Shown piece after piece: positions 31,224-58,900 of a stretch of DNA of 64,000 nucleotides. The stretch's first letter is position 1; each line of letters starts with the position of its first letter. The stretch is from Escherichia coli (GTDB lineage Bacteria > Pseudomonadota > Gammaproteobacteria > Enterobacterales > Enterobacteriaceae), in assembly GCF_029227855.1 (NCBI RefSeq), contig NZ_CP074358.1; one strand, written 5' to 3'. The notes beneath the pieces were generated by a model that was not told the DNA's origin, did not search any database, and worked only from the letters and a program-made list of their open reading frames with translations. Both the position numbers and the translations under genes were made by a program.

Positions 31224-32315
31224 TTACAGATCTCCGTACAGGCAGCGCAGCCCGGTCAGGGCCTCCGCCAGCGGGCCTTCTTGACACCGCGTGGCGAGCT
31301 CCCGGACCAGCGTCTCAAAGGCCTCCGCCGGCATAAAAATCCGCAGGCCGTCTATCCCGAAGAAGCCCTCCGGCGTGACGTTTCCGGGCGGGGAGAACAT
31401 CACTCGCTCCCCCTGGTGACCGTGCGTCAGGGCTTCCGGATGCCGGGCATACAGCGTGAACAGGCCCAGCAGTTCGGATAACGCTTCCCAGCCGTACGGC
31501 ACCACGAAGTCCTGGCCGGTGATCAGCAGGTGCAGACGGGGTGTGGTGTACCAGGCCCCCGGGCGTTCTCCGGGGTGCTGGCCGTCAACGCGGATCTCCA
31601 GGCGCAGCGTGCCGGCCTCAATGGTTTCCGTGACGGCAGAAATAACCGGGCGCAGCTCCTGTGCCAGCGTTCTTGCCTGTTCTGTGTTCCAGTCCAGGCC
31701 GCGCAGCATCAACGGGAAAACAGCTTTCAGCCGCGGCAGGGTGAAGATTTCTGCCAGCACCGCGTCCGGCACCTCCGCCAGGCCAAAACAGTCGCTCTCG
31801 AGCGGACGCAGGAGGTGTTCGGCATACATCTGATCCACCACGGGGCGCAGCGCTGCCCGGAAGGCTTCAAACTCTTCCGTCCAGTTTTTCCCGGCCAGGC
31901 GGAAAATCCCCTTCAGGTAGTGACCGTCCACAGGGCGATCGTGCTCCACCTGCCAGGCCAGCAGGTTGCCAGTGATGTCCAGCAGCGTGTCCAGGGCCGG
32001 GAGTGTGGCCAGCCTATTATGCCCGCGCAGGAAGGCCTCCCTGACGTGAACCAGGACAAAGCGCAGTTCGTCGCGGGAGAGCGCTGACGTGCCGAAGGTC
32101 TGGCCCAGAATGATATGCCGGTACAGCTGCCGGACCGTGGCCTCCGGATCGGCAATGAGCTGAAAATACCCGTCACCGGGCGCGACCGTTTTCAGGCCGT
32201 CATCGAGGAAGCGTTCGGCTAGGGCGTTGACCGAAGTATTTTCCCGACCGGCACGCGTTTTCAGCGCCTCGATAAGTTTTTTGTGAAAACGCAGGTTAAG
32301 CTGGCTTAGCATCAT
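31224..32315 (-). CDS. Protein with N-terminal ribbon-helix-helix domain and uncharacterised C-terminal domain
   Basis: N-terminus LSQLNLRFHKKLIEALKTRAGRENTSVNALAERFL fits the RHH pattern; stop is 1 nt from the KAP NTPase start; visibly GC-richer than neighbours. Confidence 0.6.
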   Translation of the reverse strand: MMLSQLNLRFHKKLIEALKTRAGRENTSVNALAERFLDDGLKTVAPGDGYFQLIADPEATVRQLYRHIILGQTFGTSALSRDELRFVLVHVREAFLRGHNRLATLPALDTLLDITGNLLAWQVEHDRPVDGHYLKGIFRLAGKNWTEEFEAFRAALRPVVDQMYAEHLLRPLESDCFGLAEVPDAVLAEIFTLPRLKAVFPLMLRGLDWNTEQARTLAQELRPVISAVTETIEAGTLRLEIRVDGQHPGERPGAWYTTPRLHLLITGQDFVVPYGWEALSELLGLFTLYARHPEALTHGHQGERVMFSPPGNVTPEGFFGIDGLRIFMPAEAFETLVRELATRCQEGPLAEALTGLRCLYGDL

Positions 32316-45593: not shown

Positions 45594-45969
45594 ATATCAG
45601 CACAGAAACCCGCGAAATTCTGCGTAATTACAGGGCCGTGATTAATGCGCGGCGTCGTGAAATGGGGCAGAAACCGCTCACCACCGCGCAGATTGTTGAT
45701 GAAATCTGCGATTTTGTGGCGAATCAGCAGGCGGTTTTCCTGGGCGGTCACTACATCTTACAGGGTAGCAGAAACAGGTGATACAGGGGCAGGCGGTGGA
45801 GGCCGCCTGTCAGTCCGCGCGAAAACCCCTGGCAGGCTGACGCCTGCCGGAAGGGAAGCGGACCACGCTGGCGCGTCGCCCGTTACCCTTCCCGTCTGTG
45901 ATGTGTCTGACTCAGGAGTGTTTCTTTCTTATGTTATGGAACTGTTCCTGATGTTGTTGTTCCTTTATC

Positions 45970-46395
45970 TGCTGCTCTGATTCTGACTACTGCAGTGTTG
46001 TTCTGTCTGCCGGGCGCACCTTCGGCTCCCGGCATCCCGGCAAAAGGCCGCCGGGATGTAAGGGGCAACGCCGTTTCGCGCACGCGCTCTCCGTCGTTGC
46101 GGCGGGTCCCTGCTCATTGCCTGCCGGTGCCACACACCCGTATGAGTCCCTGTCGCCGGGGGCTGATACAGCCACAACCTGCCGCACTGACTGTCCAGGG
46201 TAAATGAACAGCCCACAAAATTTTTTACCCAAAACCCGGTAAAAAATTTTGCGTTCTGCCCAGGACAGGTGCGTCAGGCCGTGGCAGTGATGCCCCTTGC
46301 GGCGAAGGTTCTCAAACGGGTGAAGTTCATACCACAGGGAATACAGCAGCAGGTTCCCGCGAAACGTCAAAACCGCGGCTCCCGAAACTCAACGG
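45970..46395 (+). repeat. Frpo-like leading-region repeat, copy 1 (shortened)
   Basis: Shares start and end blocks with the copies at 49114 and 54541 but lacks about 200 bp internally; GC-rich with hairpin potential. Confidence 0.6.
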
Positions 46396-46912
46396 GTGAT
46401 GTTCTTTAAAAATCAGGATTTATTTCAGGCTCCGGCAATACGCATTTATGTGTTCTGTCAGTCATCCGGCTGGCAGGTAATGAGAACGCAGGAACAGAAG
46501 GAGGAAAACACCGGAGAACGTCAGACGCAGATATGAAAAAAGCAGGTCAGGGACCTGCTTAATCCACACCGCAGAGACTGCACGAACAGTCTTTACGGTT
46601 TCATTAATTAACGTCATAAGAGGCTAAATTATGACAGTAAGTATTGTTTCACCTTCCGCAGCGGCTGTAAAGCCCCGCCGTCATCCCCGTTGCAGACGCG
46701 AAGACATCCCCGCGCCGGAAATTGACCCCGTGCTGAAAGCCTTCGGGCGACACATTGCCCGGAGTTTTCACCGGGGGCGTGGTGTACACATCCCCGCCAT
46801 GAAAAACACGGCCTTCGGGCAGGTGCTCCGCACACTCGAACTGAAACGCGCTTTTAACTGATGAGGTGAGCCGCCCCGCGAGGGGCGGCAACAGACGGAA
46901 GGAGAACATTTT

Positions 46913-48321: not shown

Positions 48322-48885
48322 ATGCACAGTCAGTTAAGAGAACGTATCCGGCTGATGCGCGCAAGGCTGGATAACGCCGCGCCGGTTGCTGAAATCCGGG
48401 CTGAATCTCAGCTTTTTGTGACTCCTGCCCCGGTCTGTGATCGCCTGGTGATGCTGGCGGAGATCAGCAACCGTGATCACATTCTGGAACCCTCTGCCGG
48501 CACCGGGGCCATACTGCGGGCGATTCGGGATACCGCGCCGGGGGCCATGTGTGATGCGGTGGAAATCAACAGCGGGCTGGTCCGGTATCTGCGGGAAAAT
48601 TTTAACGGTGTCAGGGTTCAGTGTGGCGACTTCATGGAATGGCAGCCAGTGCAGTATTACAGCCGGGTTATCATGAATCCGCCGTTCAGCCACGGGCAGG
48701 ATATCCGGCATATCCTGCGGGCCTTTTCCCTGTTGCGTCCGGGTGGCGTGCTGGTCGCCGTCTGTCTCAACGGACCACGCCAGCAGGAGAAGCTGTTACC
48801 GTTTTCTGACGTCCGCGAGGAGCTGCCGCGCGGCACGTTTGCTTATACCGATGTCCCGACGATGATTATTCGTCTGCGTGCCTGA
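48322..48885 (+). CDS. Orphan SAM-dependent methyltransferase (N6-adenine-like, NPPF motif)
   Basis: Motif I LEPSAGTGAILRAI and motif IV MNPPF. Confidence 0.7.
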   Translation: MHSQLRERIRLMRARLDNAAPVAEIRAESQLFVTPAPVCDRLVMLAEISNRDHILEPSAGTGAILRAIRDTAPGAMCDAVEINSGLVRYLRENFNGVRVQCGDFMEWQPVQYYSRVIMNPPFSHGQDIRHILRAFSLLRPGGVLVAVCLNGPRQQEKLLPFSDVREELPRGTFAYTDVPTMIIRLRA

Positions 48886-49063
48886 TGACACAGGGCCGGC
48901 GGGAGGATAAATGCCTGTCTGCCCGCGCCGGGAAAAAACGCGCGCCGGTGGCGCTGAAAGGGGCCGCGCTCACGCGCCGCCCCTTTCATTACGCGGACGT
49001 TCTGATGGGGGCTTCTGTTTCTTCATGCCTGTCATTTGTCTGTTACTGATGATGTTGTTGTTC

Positions 49064-49102
49064 CTGCTACTGCTACTGCTACTGCTACTGCTACTGCTAC
49101 TG
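49064..49102. repeat. Hexanucleotide tandem repeat (CTGCTA)x6 plus partial unit
   Basis: Read directly; equivalent position ahead of the other two Frpo-like copies has no expansion. Confidence 0.9.
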
Positions 49103-49113
49103 TTCTTCTTTTT

Positions 49114-49740
49114 CCTGCTGCTCTGATTCTGACTACTGCAGTGTTGTCCTGTCTGCCGGGCGCACCTTCGGCTCCCGGCTGCCTGGCGGCATCCGGTCGT
49201 CAGGCCCGACTCCGACAGGCAGCTGCTGGCGCACCTGCCAGTCTCCGCCGAACCCGCTGGCGCGGTTTCGGGCTGTCGCTACGGTCCGATGCGTGAAAAC
49301 CCCGGGCTTGCAGCGACCGTTCCGGTCGCGCCACCCTTGTCGCGCCGTGGCCTGCGCTCCTGGCATCCCGGCAAAAGGCCGCCGGGATGTAAGGGGCAAC
49401 GCCGTTTCGCAAACCGCGCTTCACGTCGTTGCGGCGGGTCCCTGCCCGTTGTTCTGTCCGGTGCCATTCACCTGTTTAAGCCCCTGTCGCCGGGGGCAAA
49501 GACAGCCACAACCGTCTCCGCCAGTCCAGGGGTGAAATGTACATCCCGCAAAACTTTTTGCCCAAAAGCAGGCAAAAACTTTTGCGGTCTGCCCCCGGAC
49601 AGTCGTTTCCGTCCGTGGCAGTGATGCCCCTTGCGGCGAAGGTTCTCAAAAAGGTGATGGTGAATACCGGAGGGAACAAAAGGCAGGTCCCCGCAAAACG
49701 TCAAAACCGCGGCTCCCGAAACTCAAAAGATGATGGGGGC
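49114..49740 (+). repeat. Frpo-like leading-region repeat, copy 2
   Basis: About 625 bp, near-identical to copy 3; immediately upstream of ssb. Confidence 0.65.
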
Positions 49741-49768
49741 TGAAAACATCAACAGAAGGAGGCACATC

Positions 49769-50604
<836 letters not shown>

Positions 50605-53833: not shown

Positions 53834-54112
53834 TGCGGCAACAATCACACGGATTTCCCGTGAACGGTCTGAATGAGCGGATTATTTTCAGGGAAAGTGA
53901 GTGTGGTCAGCGTGCAGGTATATGGGCTATGATGTGCCCGGCGCTTGAGGCTTTCTGCCTCATGACGTGAAGGTGGTTTGTTGCCGTGTTGTGTGGCAGA
54001 AAGAAGATAGCCCCGTAGTAAGTTAATTTTCATTAACCACCACGAGGCATCCCTATGTCTAGTCCACATCAGGATAGCCTCTTACCGCGCTTTGCGCAAG
54101 GAGAAGAAGGCC

Positions 54113-54271
54113 ATGAAACTACCACGAAGTTCCCTTGTCTGGTGTGTGTTGATCGTGTGTCTCACACTGTTGATATTCACTTATCTGACACGAAAATCGC
54201 TGTGCGAGATTCGTTACAGAGACGGACACAGGGAGGTGGCGGCTTTCATGGCTTACGAATCCGGTAAGTAG
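54113..54271 (+). CDS. hok: Hok-family type I toxin (flmA/hok), inside overlapping mok frame (54055..54267); antisense Sok expected just upstream on the minus strand
   Basis: Translation [52 protein letters not shown] matches Hok. Confidence 0.9.
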
Positions 54272-54540
54272 CAACCTGGAGGCGGGCGCAGGCCCGCCTT
54301 TTCAGGACTGATGCTGGTCTGACTACTGAAGCGCCTTTATAAAGGGGCTGCTGGTTCGCCGGTAGCCCCTTTCTCCTTGCTGATGTTGTACGGGCATGAA
54401 CAACCTGACTTCAGGAAGGTCGTTTCCCTTCAGGAACGGGGATGAACGCGCGCCTGCGGCGCCCGTTCTTTTCCCCCGCCTTCTCTGGTTATGGCCTGTC
54501 AGAAATCACATCACCTTCCCTGTGATTATTCTCTTTTTCT

Positions 54541-55165
54541 TCCTGCTCTGATTCTGACTACTGCAGTGTTGTCCTGTCTGCCGGGCGCACCTTCGGCTCC
54601 CGGCTGCCTGGCGGCATCCGGTCGTCAGGCCCGACTCCGACAGGCAGCTGCTGGCGCACCTGCCAGTCTCCGCCGAACCCGCTGGCGCGGTTTCGGGCTG
54701 TCGCTACGGTCCGATGCGTGAAAACCCCGGGCTTGCAGCGACCGTTCCGGTCGCGCCGCCTCTGTCGCGCCGTGGCCTGCGCTCCTGGCATCCCGGCAAA
54801 AGGCCGCCGGGATGTAAGGGGCAACGCCGTTTCGCAAACCGCGCTTCACGTCGTTGCGGCGGGTCCCTGCCCGTTGTTCTGTCCGGTGCCATTCACCTGT
54901 TTAAGCCCCTGTCGCCGGGGGCTGATACAGCCACAACCTGCCGCACTGACTGTCCAGGGTAAATGAACAGCCCGCAAAACTTTTTGCCCAGAAGCAGGCA
55001 AAAACTTTTGCGGTCTGCCCCCGGACAGTCGTTTCCGGCCGTGGCAGTGATGCCCCATGCGGCGAAGGTTCTCAAACAGGTGATGGTGAATACCGGAGGG
55101 AACAAAAGGCAGGTCCCCGCAAAACGTCAAAACCGCGGCTCCCGAAACTCAACAGATGATGGGGG
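54541..55165 (+). repeat. Frpo-like leading-region repeat, copy 3
   Basis: Near-identical to copy 2. Confidence 0.65.
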
Positions 55166-55193
55166 CTGAAAACCAGAGAGAGGAGAAAGCAGG

Positions 55194-57289: not shown

Positions 57290-57640
57290 GGTTGGTGGTT
57301 CTCACCACCAAAAGCACCACACCCCACGCAAAAACAAGTTTTTGCTGATTTTTCTTTATAAATAGAGAGTTATGAAAAATTAGTTTCTCTTACTCTCTTT
57401 ATGATATTTAAAAAAGCGGTGTCGGCGCGGCTACAACAACGCGCCGACACCGCTTTGTAGGGGTGGTGCTGACTATTTTTATAAAAAACATTATTTTATA
57501 TTAGGGGTGCTGCTAGCGGCGCGGTGTGTTTTTTTATAGGATACCGCTAGGGGCGCTGCTAGCGGTGCGTCCCTGTTTGCATTATGAATTTTAGTGTTTC
57601 GAAATTAACTTTATTTTATGTTCAAAAAAGGTAATCTCTA
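57290..57640. other. oriT: F-like origin of transfer (oriT) with nic region and TraM/TraY/IHF binding repeats
   Basis: Minus strand reads TTTGCGTGGGGTGT/GGTGCTTTTGGTGGTGAGAACCACC (F nic context) at about 57305-57340; inverted and direct repeats upstream of traM. Confidence 0.85.
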
Positions 57641-58024: not shown

Positions 58025-58129
58025 AAGAAATTTGACTTCGTTCAAATATCAGAGTTTTTATGATTTAAAAAGGTGACAGTACGAAAGATAATTAGTATAT
58101 TAATTACGTGGTTAATGCCACGTTAAAAT

Positions 58130-58212
58130 TTGAATTTGAAAATCGCCGATGCAGGGAGTTCTCTCCTCCCTGCATCGACTGTCCATAGAATCCTTTGTGA
58201 GGAGGTTCCTAT
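58130..58212 (-). ncRNA. finP: FinP antisense RNA (approximate extent)
   Basis: Complementary to the traJ leader and RBS; 11-bp perfect stem GATGCAGGGAG/CTCCCTGCATC at 58148-58176. Confidence 0.55.
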
Positions 58213-58900
58213 GTATCCGATGGATCGTATTCAACAAAAACATGCTCGTCAAATAGATCTGCTGGAAAATCTGACGGCAGTTATTCAGGATTATCCAAAT
58301 CCAGCCTGTATCAGGGACGAAACTGGAAAATTTATTTTTTGCAATACGCTGTTTCATGAGTCATTTCTTACACAAGATCAAAGTGCTGAAAAATGGCTTC
58401 TGTCGCAGAGAGATTTTTGTGAATTGATCTCTGTCACAGAGATGGAAGCATACAGGAATGAGCATACGCATCTTAATCTTGTAGAGGATGTTTTTATTCA
58501 GAACAGATTCTGGACAATATCTGTCCAGTCATTTCTTAATGGACACAGAAATATCATTCTGTGGCAATTTTATGATGCTGCTCATGTTCGTCATAAAGAC
58601 AGTTATAATCAAAAAACGATTGTCAGTGATGATATCAGAAATATAATCAGAAGAATGAGTGATGATTCTTCTGTATCATCATATGTAAATGATGTCTTTT
58701 ACTTATATAGCACCGGAATCAGTCATAATGCTATAGCAAGAATATTAAACATATCCATCTCCACATCAAAGAAACACGCGTCTCTGATATGCGACTACTT
58801 CTCTGTTTCTAATAAAGATGAGTTAATCATCTTACTCTACAATAAAAAGTTTATTCATTATTTGTACGAGAAGGCTATGTGTATCATAAATACGCGTTAA
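58211..58900 (+). CDS. traJ: Transfer activator TraJ
   Basis: ATG at 58211 after GGAGG; 229 aa MYPMDRIQQKHARQIDLLENL... Confidence 0.9.
   Translation: MYPMDRIQQKHARQIDLLENLTAVIQDYPNPACIRDETGKFIFCNTLFHESFLTQDQSAEKWLLSQRDFCELISVTEMEAYRNEHTHLNLVEDVFIQNRFWTISVQSFLNGHRNIILWQFYDAAHVRHKDSYNQKTIVSDDIRNIIRRMSDDSSVSSYVNDVFYLYSTGISHNAIARILNISISTSKKHASLICDYFSVSNKDELIILLYNKKFIHYLYEKAMCIINTR

Follow-up and report, generated by a model that had tools for sequence, protein, structure and literature searches.

Why does a perfect hexanucleotide array stand at the edge of one of three related promoter-like units in the leading region of an IncF-type plasmid, and does its length matter to the plasmid or simply drift? 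The DNA analyzed here (the window) is a 64,000-nucleotide stretch of Escherichia coli contig NZ_CP074358.1 (assembly GCF_029227855.1), in which an IncF-type conjugative plasmid is represented by its leading region and by the first part of its transfer region. In Rfam comparisons sok is matched at 53939-54115 and the traJ 5'UTR/FinP pair at 58106-58217. Upstream of this pair the minus strand carries, at 57310-57323, an exact match to the F-type oriT nic-region sequence GGTGTGGTGCTTTT. The placement of this sequence on the minus strand makes that strand the transferred strand (T-strand), and the plus-strand genes are then the ones read from the T-strand. The gene order, taken from the list of open reading frames (ORFs) and from the PGAP annotation of a plasmid 99.6% identical to the window, is as follows: antirestriction, DUF1380, DUF3560, class I SAM methyltransferase, the array, ssb, DUF905, a ParB-like gene, psiB, psiA, hok/sok, a ygeA-like ORF and a DUF932 gene. 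The two genes on either side of the array are both on the plus strand: the class I SAM-dependent methyltransferase gene at 48322-48885 (ORF list and PGAP annotation in related plasmids), and ssb at 49769-50308 (ORF list and PGAP at the matching pPN156 coordinates), which is the first gene 3' of the Frpo2-type unit.

In plasmid F, Frpo1 lies 5' of ygeA/B and Frpo2 lies 5' of ssb, and early expression of the genes downstream of each from the incoming single strand needs Frpo1 and Frpo2, respectively (PMC9849209). The window has three such Frpo-like units, all on the minus strand. Copy 1 (45941-46413; direct-repeat families and edge alignment) is a shortened unit, copy 2 (49107-49747; direct-repeat families D1-D5 and homology to F Frpo2) is the equivalent of Frpo2 / ssp1b, acts in single-stranded form on the transferred strand and lies 5' of ssb, and copy 3 (54512-55173; direct repeats and edge alignment) is the equivalent of Frpo1 and lies 5' of the ygeA-like and DUF932 genes. 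In the window copy 1 falls about 185 nt short of its usual length in related plasmids: in most records the matches to a 221-nt query from it form two pieces that together extend over about 406 nt. It is also without the segment equivalent to about 49188-49355 of copy 2. Just 3' of copy 1, at 46537-46636 on the minus strand, is a 98.9-bit match to the Rfam family AS-pc01 (RF02875, 'Antisense to pHK01_035') that abuts the start of a small ORF at 46631-46861.

The array itself is (CTGCTA)x6 plus CTG on the plus strand at 49064-49102, or (TAGCAG)n on the transferred strand, and it lies in the leading region between the SAM-methyltransferase gene and the Frpo2-type unit 5' of ssb. Tandem Repeats Finder gives it a period of 6, 6.5 copies, 100% matches and a score of 78, the highest of any tandem repeat in the window, and these are the head-to-tail short units of high identity that make up a VNTR; direct reading of the sequence agrees, so the tandem CTGCTA array reported at this place by an initial annotation of the DNA is indeed there. 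The 12-mer CTGCTACTGCTA, with at most one mismatch allowed, occurs five times, every time inside the array (0.2 occurrences are expected from shuffled sequences). Alignment of the three left edges finds no array at the equivalent place in copies 1 and 3, also as had been reported. To the right of the array, three-way conservation of the Frpo-like copies starts in a pyrimidine-rich border (TTCTTCTTTTTCCTGCTGCTCTGA, 49103-49126), of which other plasmids and metagenome alleles carry the variants CTGCTC... and ...CCGCTC. To the left is TGATG(ATG)TTGTTGTTC (49050-49063), which is common to copy 1, and the 16-mer TGATGTTGTTGTTCCT immediately left of the array (49050-49065) has an exact second occurrence at copy 1 (45949-45964). 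The array is thus an expansion within the repeat unit and was not placed ahead of it; its initial description as standing ahead of copy 2 is corrected by the 16-mer common to copy 1, which puts it inside the unit. This left border carries a 3-bp polymorphism immediately left of the array (CTGATGATGTTG versus CTGATGTTG, window 49053-49058), and among the metagenome alleles listed 90 have ATGATG and 30 have ATG.

How variable is the array? Its copy number, read directly in 17 plasmids, is 1, 2, 2, 3, 4, 5, 6, 6, 6, 7, 7, 8, 9, 9, 10, 11 and 12 units (range 1-12), and in each of the 15 plasmid alleles that were fetched (1, 2, 2, 3, 4, 5, 6, 7, 7, 8, 9, 9, 10, 11 and 12 units) the array is perfect. 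A 241-nt query across the array has matches in at least 5000 plasmids, and the full-length matches differ from it in length by -30 to +36 nt, every difference being a multiple of 3. The full locus is present in 1554 of 5426 complete E. coli genomes, where a length ladder from -33 to +51 nt, again with steps that are all multiples of 3, implies about 1-15 array units. The odd multiples of 3 arise because of the neighboring ATG/ATGATG polymorphism, and the length differences among the 15 fetched alleles are composed of 6-bp steps plus this ATG indel. BLAST rows are ordered by likeness to the query and show the range of n and not its frequency, so frequencies were taken from a pattern scan of metagenomes; the pattern admitted n = 1-11 units, and the alleles are the first matches (at least 120) from short-read assemblies and not a random census. 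Among these matches the counts for n = 1 to 11 are 9, 16, 17, 19, 22, 13, 11, 7, 4, 1 and 1, respectively, a smooth distribution with a single peak, a mode of 4-5 and a tail to 11. Six units is an ordinary length among the metagenome alleles, and the term "expanded" that the initial annotation used for the array is apt relative to copies 1 and 3 only and does not fit these at least 120 alleles, in which six units is common. No array with zero units was seen in the plasmid alleles or in the metagenome alleles, the pattern for the latter having needed at least one unit.

The array changes faster than its flanks. Plasmids L001 and L006 have zero differences over about 1300 flanking nt and carry 6 and 8 units, and L005 and L007, also with zero differences over about 1300 flanking nt, carry 7 and 12. 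The left edges of the other two units, which are without a perfect array, served as controls that span thousands of plasmids: the copy 3 edge is 220-222 nt long in all full-length plasmid matches and the copy 1 edge gives no length ladder across plasmids, so a general instability of Frpo left edges is ruled out. The array therefore has two further marks of a VNTR, whole-unit polymorphism among relatives and change that outpaces the flanks. The initial suggestion of a slippage-prone tract that varies between isolates stands, in that repeat number is not invariant across related plasmids (1-12 units in plasmids and about 1-15 in genomes) and differs even where 1.3 kb of flanking sequence is identical.

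We consider the tract likely to be a near-neutral microsatellite (VNTR), one that sits in a non-coding spacer of the IncF leading region and changes by slippage. Perfect head-to-tail CTGCTA units would misalign during DNA synthesis (slipped-strand mispairing) so that whole units are gained or lost, and copy number would drift between about 1 and 15 much faster than point changes occur in the flanks; we infer slippage as the mechanism from the fact that the changes are in whole units. Conjugation would add further chances of slippage, as the tract would then be exposed as single-stranded DNA and copied by discontinuous complementary-strand synthesis, which in F stalls at the structured single-stranded DNA promoter ssp2 (bioRxiv 10.64898/2026.01.09.698686). 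The single-peaked shape of the allele distribution fits a drifting microsatellite and not an ON/OFF switch, and a quantitative effect of copy number on expression or fitness is still conceivable.

To which of its neighbors does the array belong? The Frpo2 unit is a mosaic. Its left half comes in two distinct sequence types, that of the window (49127-49300) and an F-like type (as in L017, pHN7A8, at 32100-32260), which are present in about 54 and 66, respectively, of the metagenome alleles listed; the hairpin half is conserved. Where the right flank is F-like, in pHN7A8-type plasmids and in metagenome alleles, the array retains its methyltransferase-side flank, and since it travels with that flank it belongs to the spacer downstream of the methyltransferase gene and not to the promoter. 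In three metagenome contigs (L026, L093 and L097) a second unit with an array lies between hok/sok and the DUF932 gene, so the initial statement that only one copy has the array is correct for the window and not for these contigs. In L093 a 3' remnant of the methyltransferase gene lies ahead of the second array, which suggests that recombination among Frpo-like repeats moved the array segment. The second unit gives these contigs four Frpo cores, and its site is equivalent to about 54400-54550 of the window.

Plasmid F (NC_002483), whose Frpo2 has been found experimentally to drive early ssb expression (PMC9849209), is without the DUF3560 and methyltransferase genes and without a CTGCTA array at the left edge of Frpo2, and the array is thus absent from the characterized F Frpo elements. 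At that edge F has a different pyrimidine-rich tandem repeat, TTCCTCTTC x5.2, at 13016-13062 of the F record (L018), a site homologous to about 49040-49126 of the window. The F repeat also varies, with full-length plasmid matches that differ by -9, -18, -19 and -30 nt. Two lineages thus have different microsatellites at the same spot, and it could be that a simple pyrimidine tract is favored there.

The above measurements demonstrate that array length varies, but does it tune early, single-strand-dependent expression of ssb and the genes downstream through spacing or structure at the upstream edge of Frpo2, for example by altered SSB loading or by the approach of the polymerase that turns the strand duplex and the promoter off? 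The initial annotation had proposed that repeat length could alter spacing or structure where the ssb promoter region begins, and the array does abut a conserved Frpo-like unit, in a position where F-type plasmids have another variable simple repeat. Complementary-strand synthesis would cross the array just ahead of the structured unit, and in F a stall of this synthesis at the hairpin of a single-stranded DNA promoter is known, and it prolongs induction; the stall, however, was mapped at ssp2 and not at Frpo2/ssp1b (bioRxiv 10.64898/2026.01.09.698686). Structure prediction also argues against tuning of this kind. The T-strand of 49020-49770, folded as single-stranded DNA, has a predicted energy of -187.8 kcal/mol (z = -8.0), and its minimum-energy and centroid structures contain the main long imperfect hairpin of the Frpo unit (49436-49722, minus strand), which is like that of a characterized single-stranded DNA promoter. 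The array lies about 330 nt from this hairpin on the 3' side of the T-strand, that is, upstream in the mRNA sense, so it is not transcribed from Frpo2. In the centroid structure it is left unpaired, and on its own, as single-stranded DNA, the array has no stable fold, doing no better than its shuffles. When the T-strand was refolded with n = 0 to 20 units, the minimum-energy structure of the hairpin was identical throughout and the total folding energy ranged only from -203.7 to -208.6 kcal/mol. With the hairpin about 330 nt off and insensitive to n, the array is ruled out as part of the Frpo structure, and it is not part of the T-strand hairpin that rebuilds the -35 and -10 boxes in an Frpo / ssi class 1 promoter. 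No sigma-70-type duplex promoter was found in 48850-49800, which rules out the array as a spacer in a promoter of that kind, and no RNA family covers it at the gathering threshold (matches at E up to 1 are at chance level only), which rules it out as a known RNA element. The promoter effect originally suggested is not supported: the hairpin is distant and does not respond to n, the array is unstructured, no sigma-70-type promoter was found nearby, and the active Frpo2 of F has no CTGCTA array. In addition, the allele distribution is smooth and single-peaked, and deletion of Frpo2 leaves the conjugation frequency of F unchanged (PMC9849209), so that any selection for fine tuning is probably weak. 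We regard control of early expression by array length as very unlikely. DnaG primase prefers CTG on its template, and the CTG trinucleotides of the array are on the non-transferred strand, which rules out DnaG priming on the incoming strand by way of the array.

Might the array instead be part of a gene? Two plus-strand ORFs cross it, both annotated by PGAP as hypothetical proteins: a poly-Leu ORF of 71 codons (48911-49126) and an ORF of 86 codons with a TTG start (49036-49296) in the Ala-Thr frame, in which the array reads GCT-ACT and which, to judge solely from the published register of the repeat, would be the 'yddA' of an earlier report (PMC6052338). RefSeq/PGAP also annotates the two overlapping hypothetical proteins at the corresponding places in L001-L016, with WP_ accessions of their own for most of the repeat-number alleles that were fetched. 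The initial annotation took the poly-Leu ORF for just the translation of the repeat, and this is true of the Leu run but not of the first approximately 51 codons, which are unique sequence. One could suppose that the poly-Leu frame encodes a short hydrophobic membrane peptide, made in coupling with or after the methyltransferase, whose transmembrane length is set by the repeat. The frame is open in every allele, for at least 30 codons 5' of the array in 101 of 101, and it ends at the conserved TGA in 93 of 101; most lineages have some in-frame ATG, which in the lineage of the window is preceded by GGGAGGATAA and in another lineage overlaps the methyltransferase stop codon; T is at position 2 in 29 consecutive codons, non-repeat flanks included; and PGAP calls the ORF. 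Against this, lineages differ in the position of the start or lack it (counted back from the array, the first in-frame ATG is at 60 codons in 46 of 101 alleles, at 50-52 codons in 22, and at only 12-13 or 5 codons in 27), and a 1-nt indel between lineages shifts the upstream frame. The Ala-Thr frame has no in-frame ATG in 96 of the 101 alleles.

A coding signal is absent from the substitutions as well. Among 55 distinct upstream flanks, 46 variable columns split 16:15:15 over the three codon positions, and synonymous and non-synonymous changes stand at about 12:43 whichever of the three frames is used (13:43 in the Ala-Thr frame), so that in the poly-Leu frame 43 of 55 substitutions are non-synonymous, as in the other two. 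The even split together with equal ratios in all frames is the expectation for non-coding DNA. Of the five ORFs at the left edges of the three Frpo-like units, none has a Pfam match. Moreover, no stop occurs within the array in any of the three forward frames, and long open frames are expected by chance at such GC richness. Thus neither 'yddA' nor the poly-Leu ORF has the conserved start and frame or the third-position and synonymous excess of a protein-coding gene, and both look like annotation artifacts; the ORF calls would be by-products of a stop-poor, GC-rich sequence with a period-3 composition. As the unit is 6 bp long, the array can switch no reading frame on or off. We find a membrane peptide quite unlikely. 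All three Frpo-like copies have an ORF that stops at one and the same conserved TGA (in CTGCTCTGATTCTGA; 45980, 49126 and 54551), and the stretch before this TGA is T-rich at each edge, with a period of 3 and a Leu/Phe-rich translation; this common feature is probably compositional.

The occurrence of (CTGCTA)n here and (TTCCTCTTC)n in F could also be taken to mean that the entry side of Frpo2, where complementary-strand synthesis on the incoming strand arrives first, is a selected pad of simple sequence, for which different IncF lineages keep different unstructured pyrimidine/purine microsatellites and whose length could adjust the time that the leading region spends single-stranded. We think this very unlikely. 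If it were true, length would set the duration of induction of ssb, psiB and the anti-defense genes, and the plasmid would have heritable and rapidly reversible variation in its establishment behavior.

The near-neutral microsatellite is thus the reading that we prefer, and its polymorphism is already in the literature: the same repeat was described, as GCTACT within 'yddA', among near-identical plasmids of the F33:A-:B- lineage, which have 7-8+ copies and in which near-identical plasmids differ only by the GCTACT repeat and a 9-bp repeat in traD (PMC6052338). GCTACT is CTGCTA in a shifted register, and at 32031-32078 pHN7A8 has (CTGCTA)8, with the methyltransferase gene on one side and ssb on the other; these 8 units equal the value in Table 2 of that report, and the locus is therefore the same. 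The earlier report placed the repeat inside a gene and followed it in one lineage, whereas here it is found at about 1-15 units across IncF plasmids, with no coding signature, and is placed relative to the Frpo unit. No function is assigned to the array in the literature that was searched, and recent papers on Frpo are silent on it. That the array lengths are polymerase or assembler errors is extremely improbable, for although some sequencing chemistries are error-prone at tandem repeats, discrete whole-unit alleles recur in hundreds of independent sequences (complete plasmids, complete genomes and metagenome assemblies), the pHN7A8 record has the published number of units (PMC6052338), and an array of 9-90 nt fits within a typical read.

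What use is such a locus? Most likely its biological weight is small and it will be mainly useful as a plasmid-typing marker. It separates otherwise identical IncF resistance plasmids and can thus help to trace very recent transmission, and comparisons of plasmids by SNPs or by length must ignore the repeat or handle it explicitly. Spurious hypothetical proteins called from a non-coding VNTR also inflate protein databases and pangenome counts. An effect of repeat length on early expression would constitute a new and reversible control on plasmid establishment; none of our results points there.

How does the array compare with known repeat systems? It resembles the bacterial microsatellites or VNTRs of MLVA-type schemes in its perfect short units, whole-unit changes, a rate that outpaces point substitution, and single-peaked alleles, and differs from those loci in that it is on a conjugative plasmid beside a single-strand promoter; no formal typing use of it was found in the literature searched. 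The CAACAGCCG 9-bp repeat in traD of F-like plasmids is likewise an in-register tandem repeat that varies among otherwise identical IncF plasmids (PMC6052338), but it is inside a real protein-coding gene whereas the array is in a non-coding spacer. Simple-sequence contingency loci, as in Neisseria and Haemophilus, also have a slippage-prone repeat near an expression signal; the array differs from these in that its 6-bp unit shifts no frame, it is not located between -35 and -10 boxes and so does not change their spacing, and its alleles are not bimodal and form no ON and OFF length clusters. Nor does it seem to be an array of iterons or of other protein-binding sites, as the number of units is not conserved and a period of 6 bp is out of step with the helical repeat. 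Finally, the unit that it borders is homologous to F Frpo2 over the hairpin half and, like the Frpo / ssi class 1 promoters (Masai and Arai 1997; PMC9849209), is predicted to fold into a long stable hairpin on the T-strand. The array lies outside that hairpin and is absent from F, and it is thus a neighbor of the promoter rather than a component of it.
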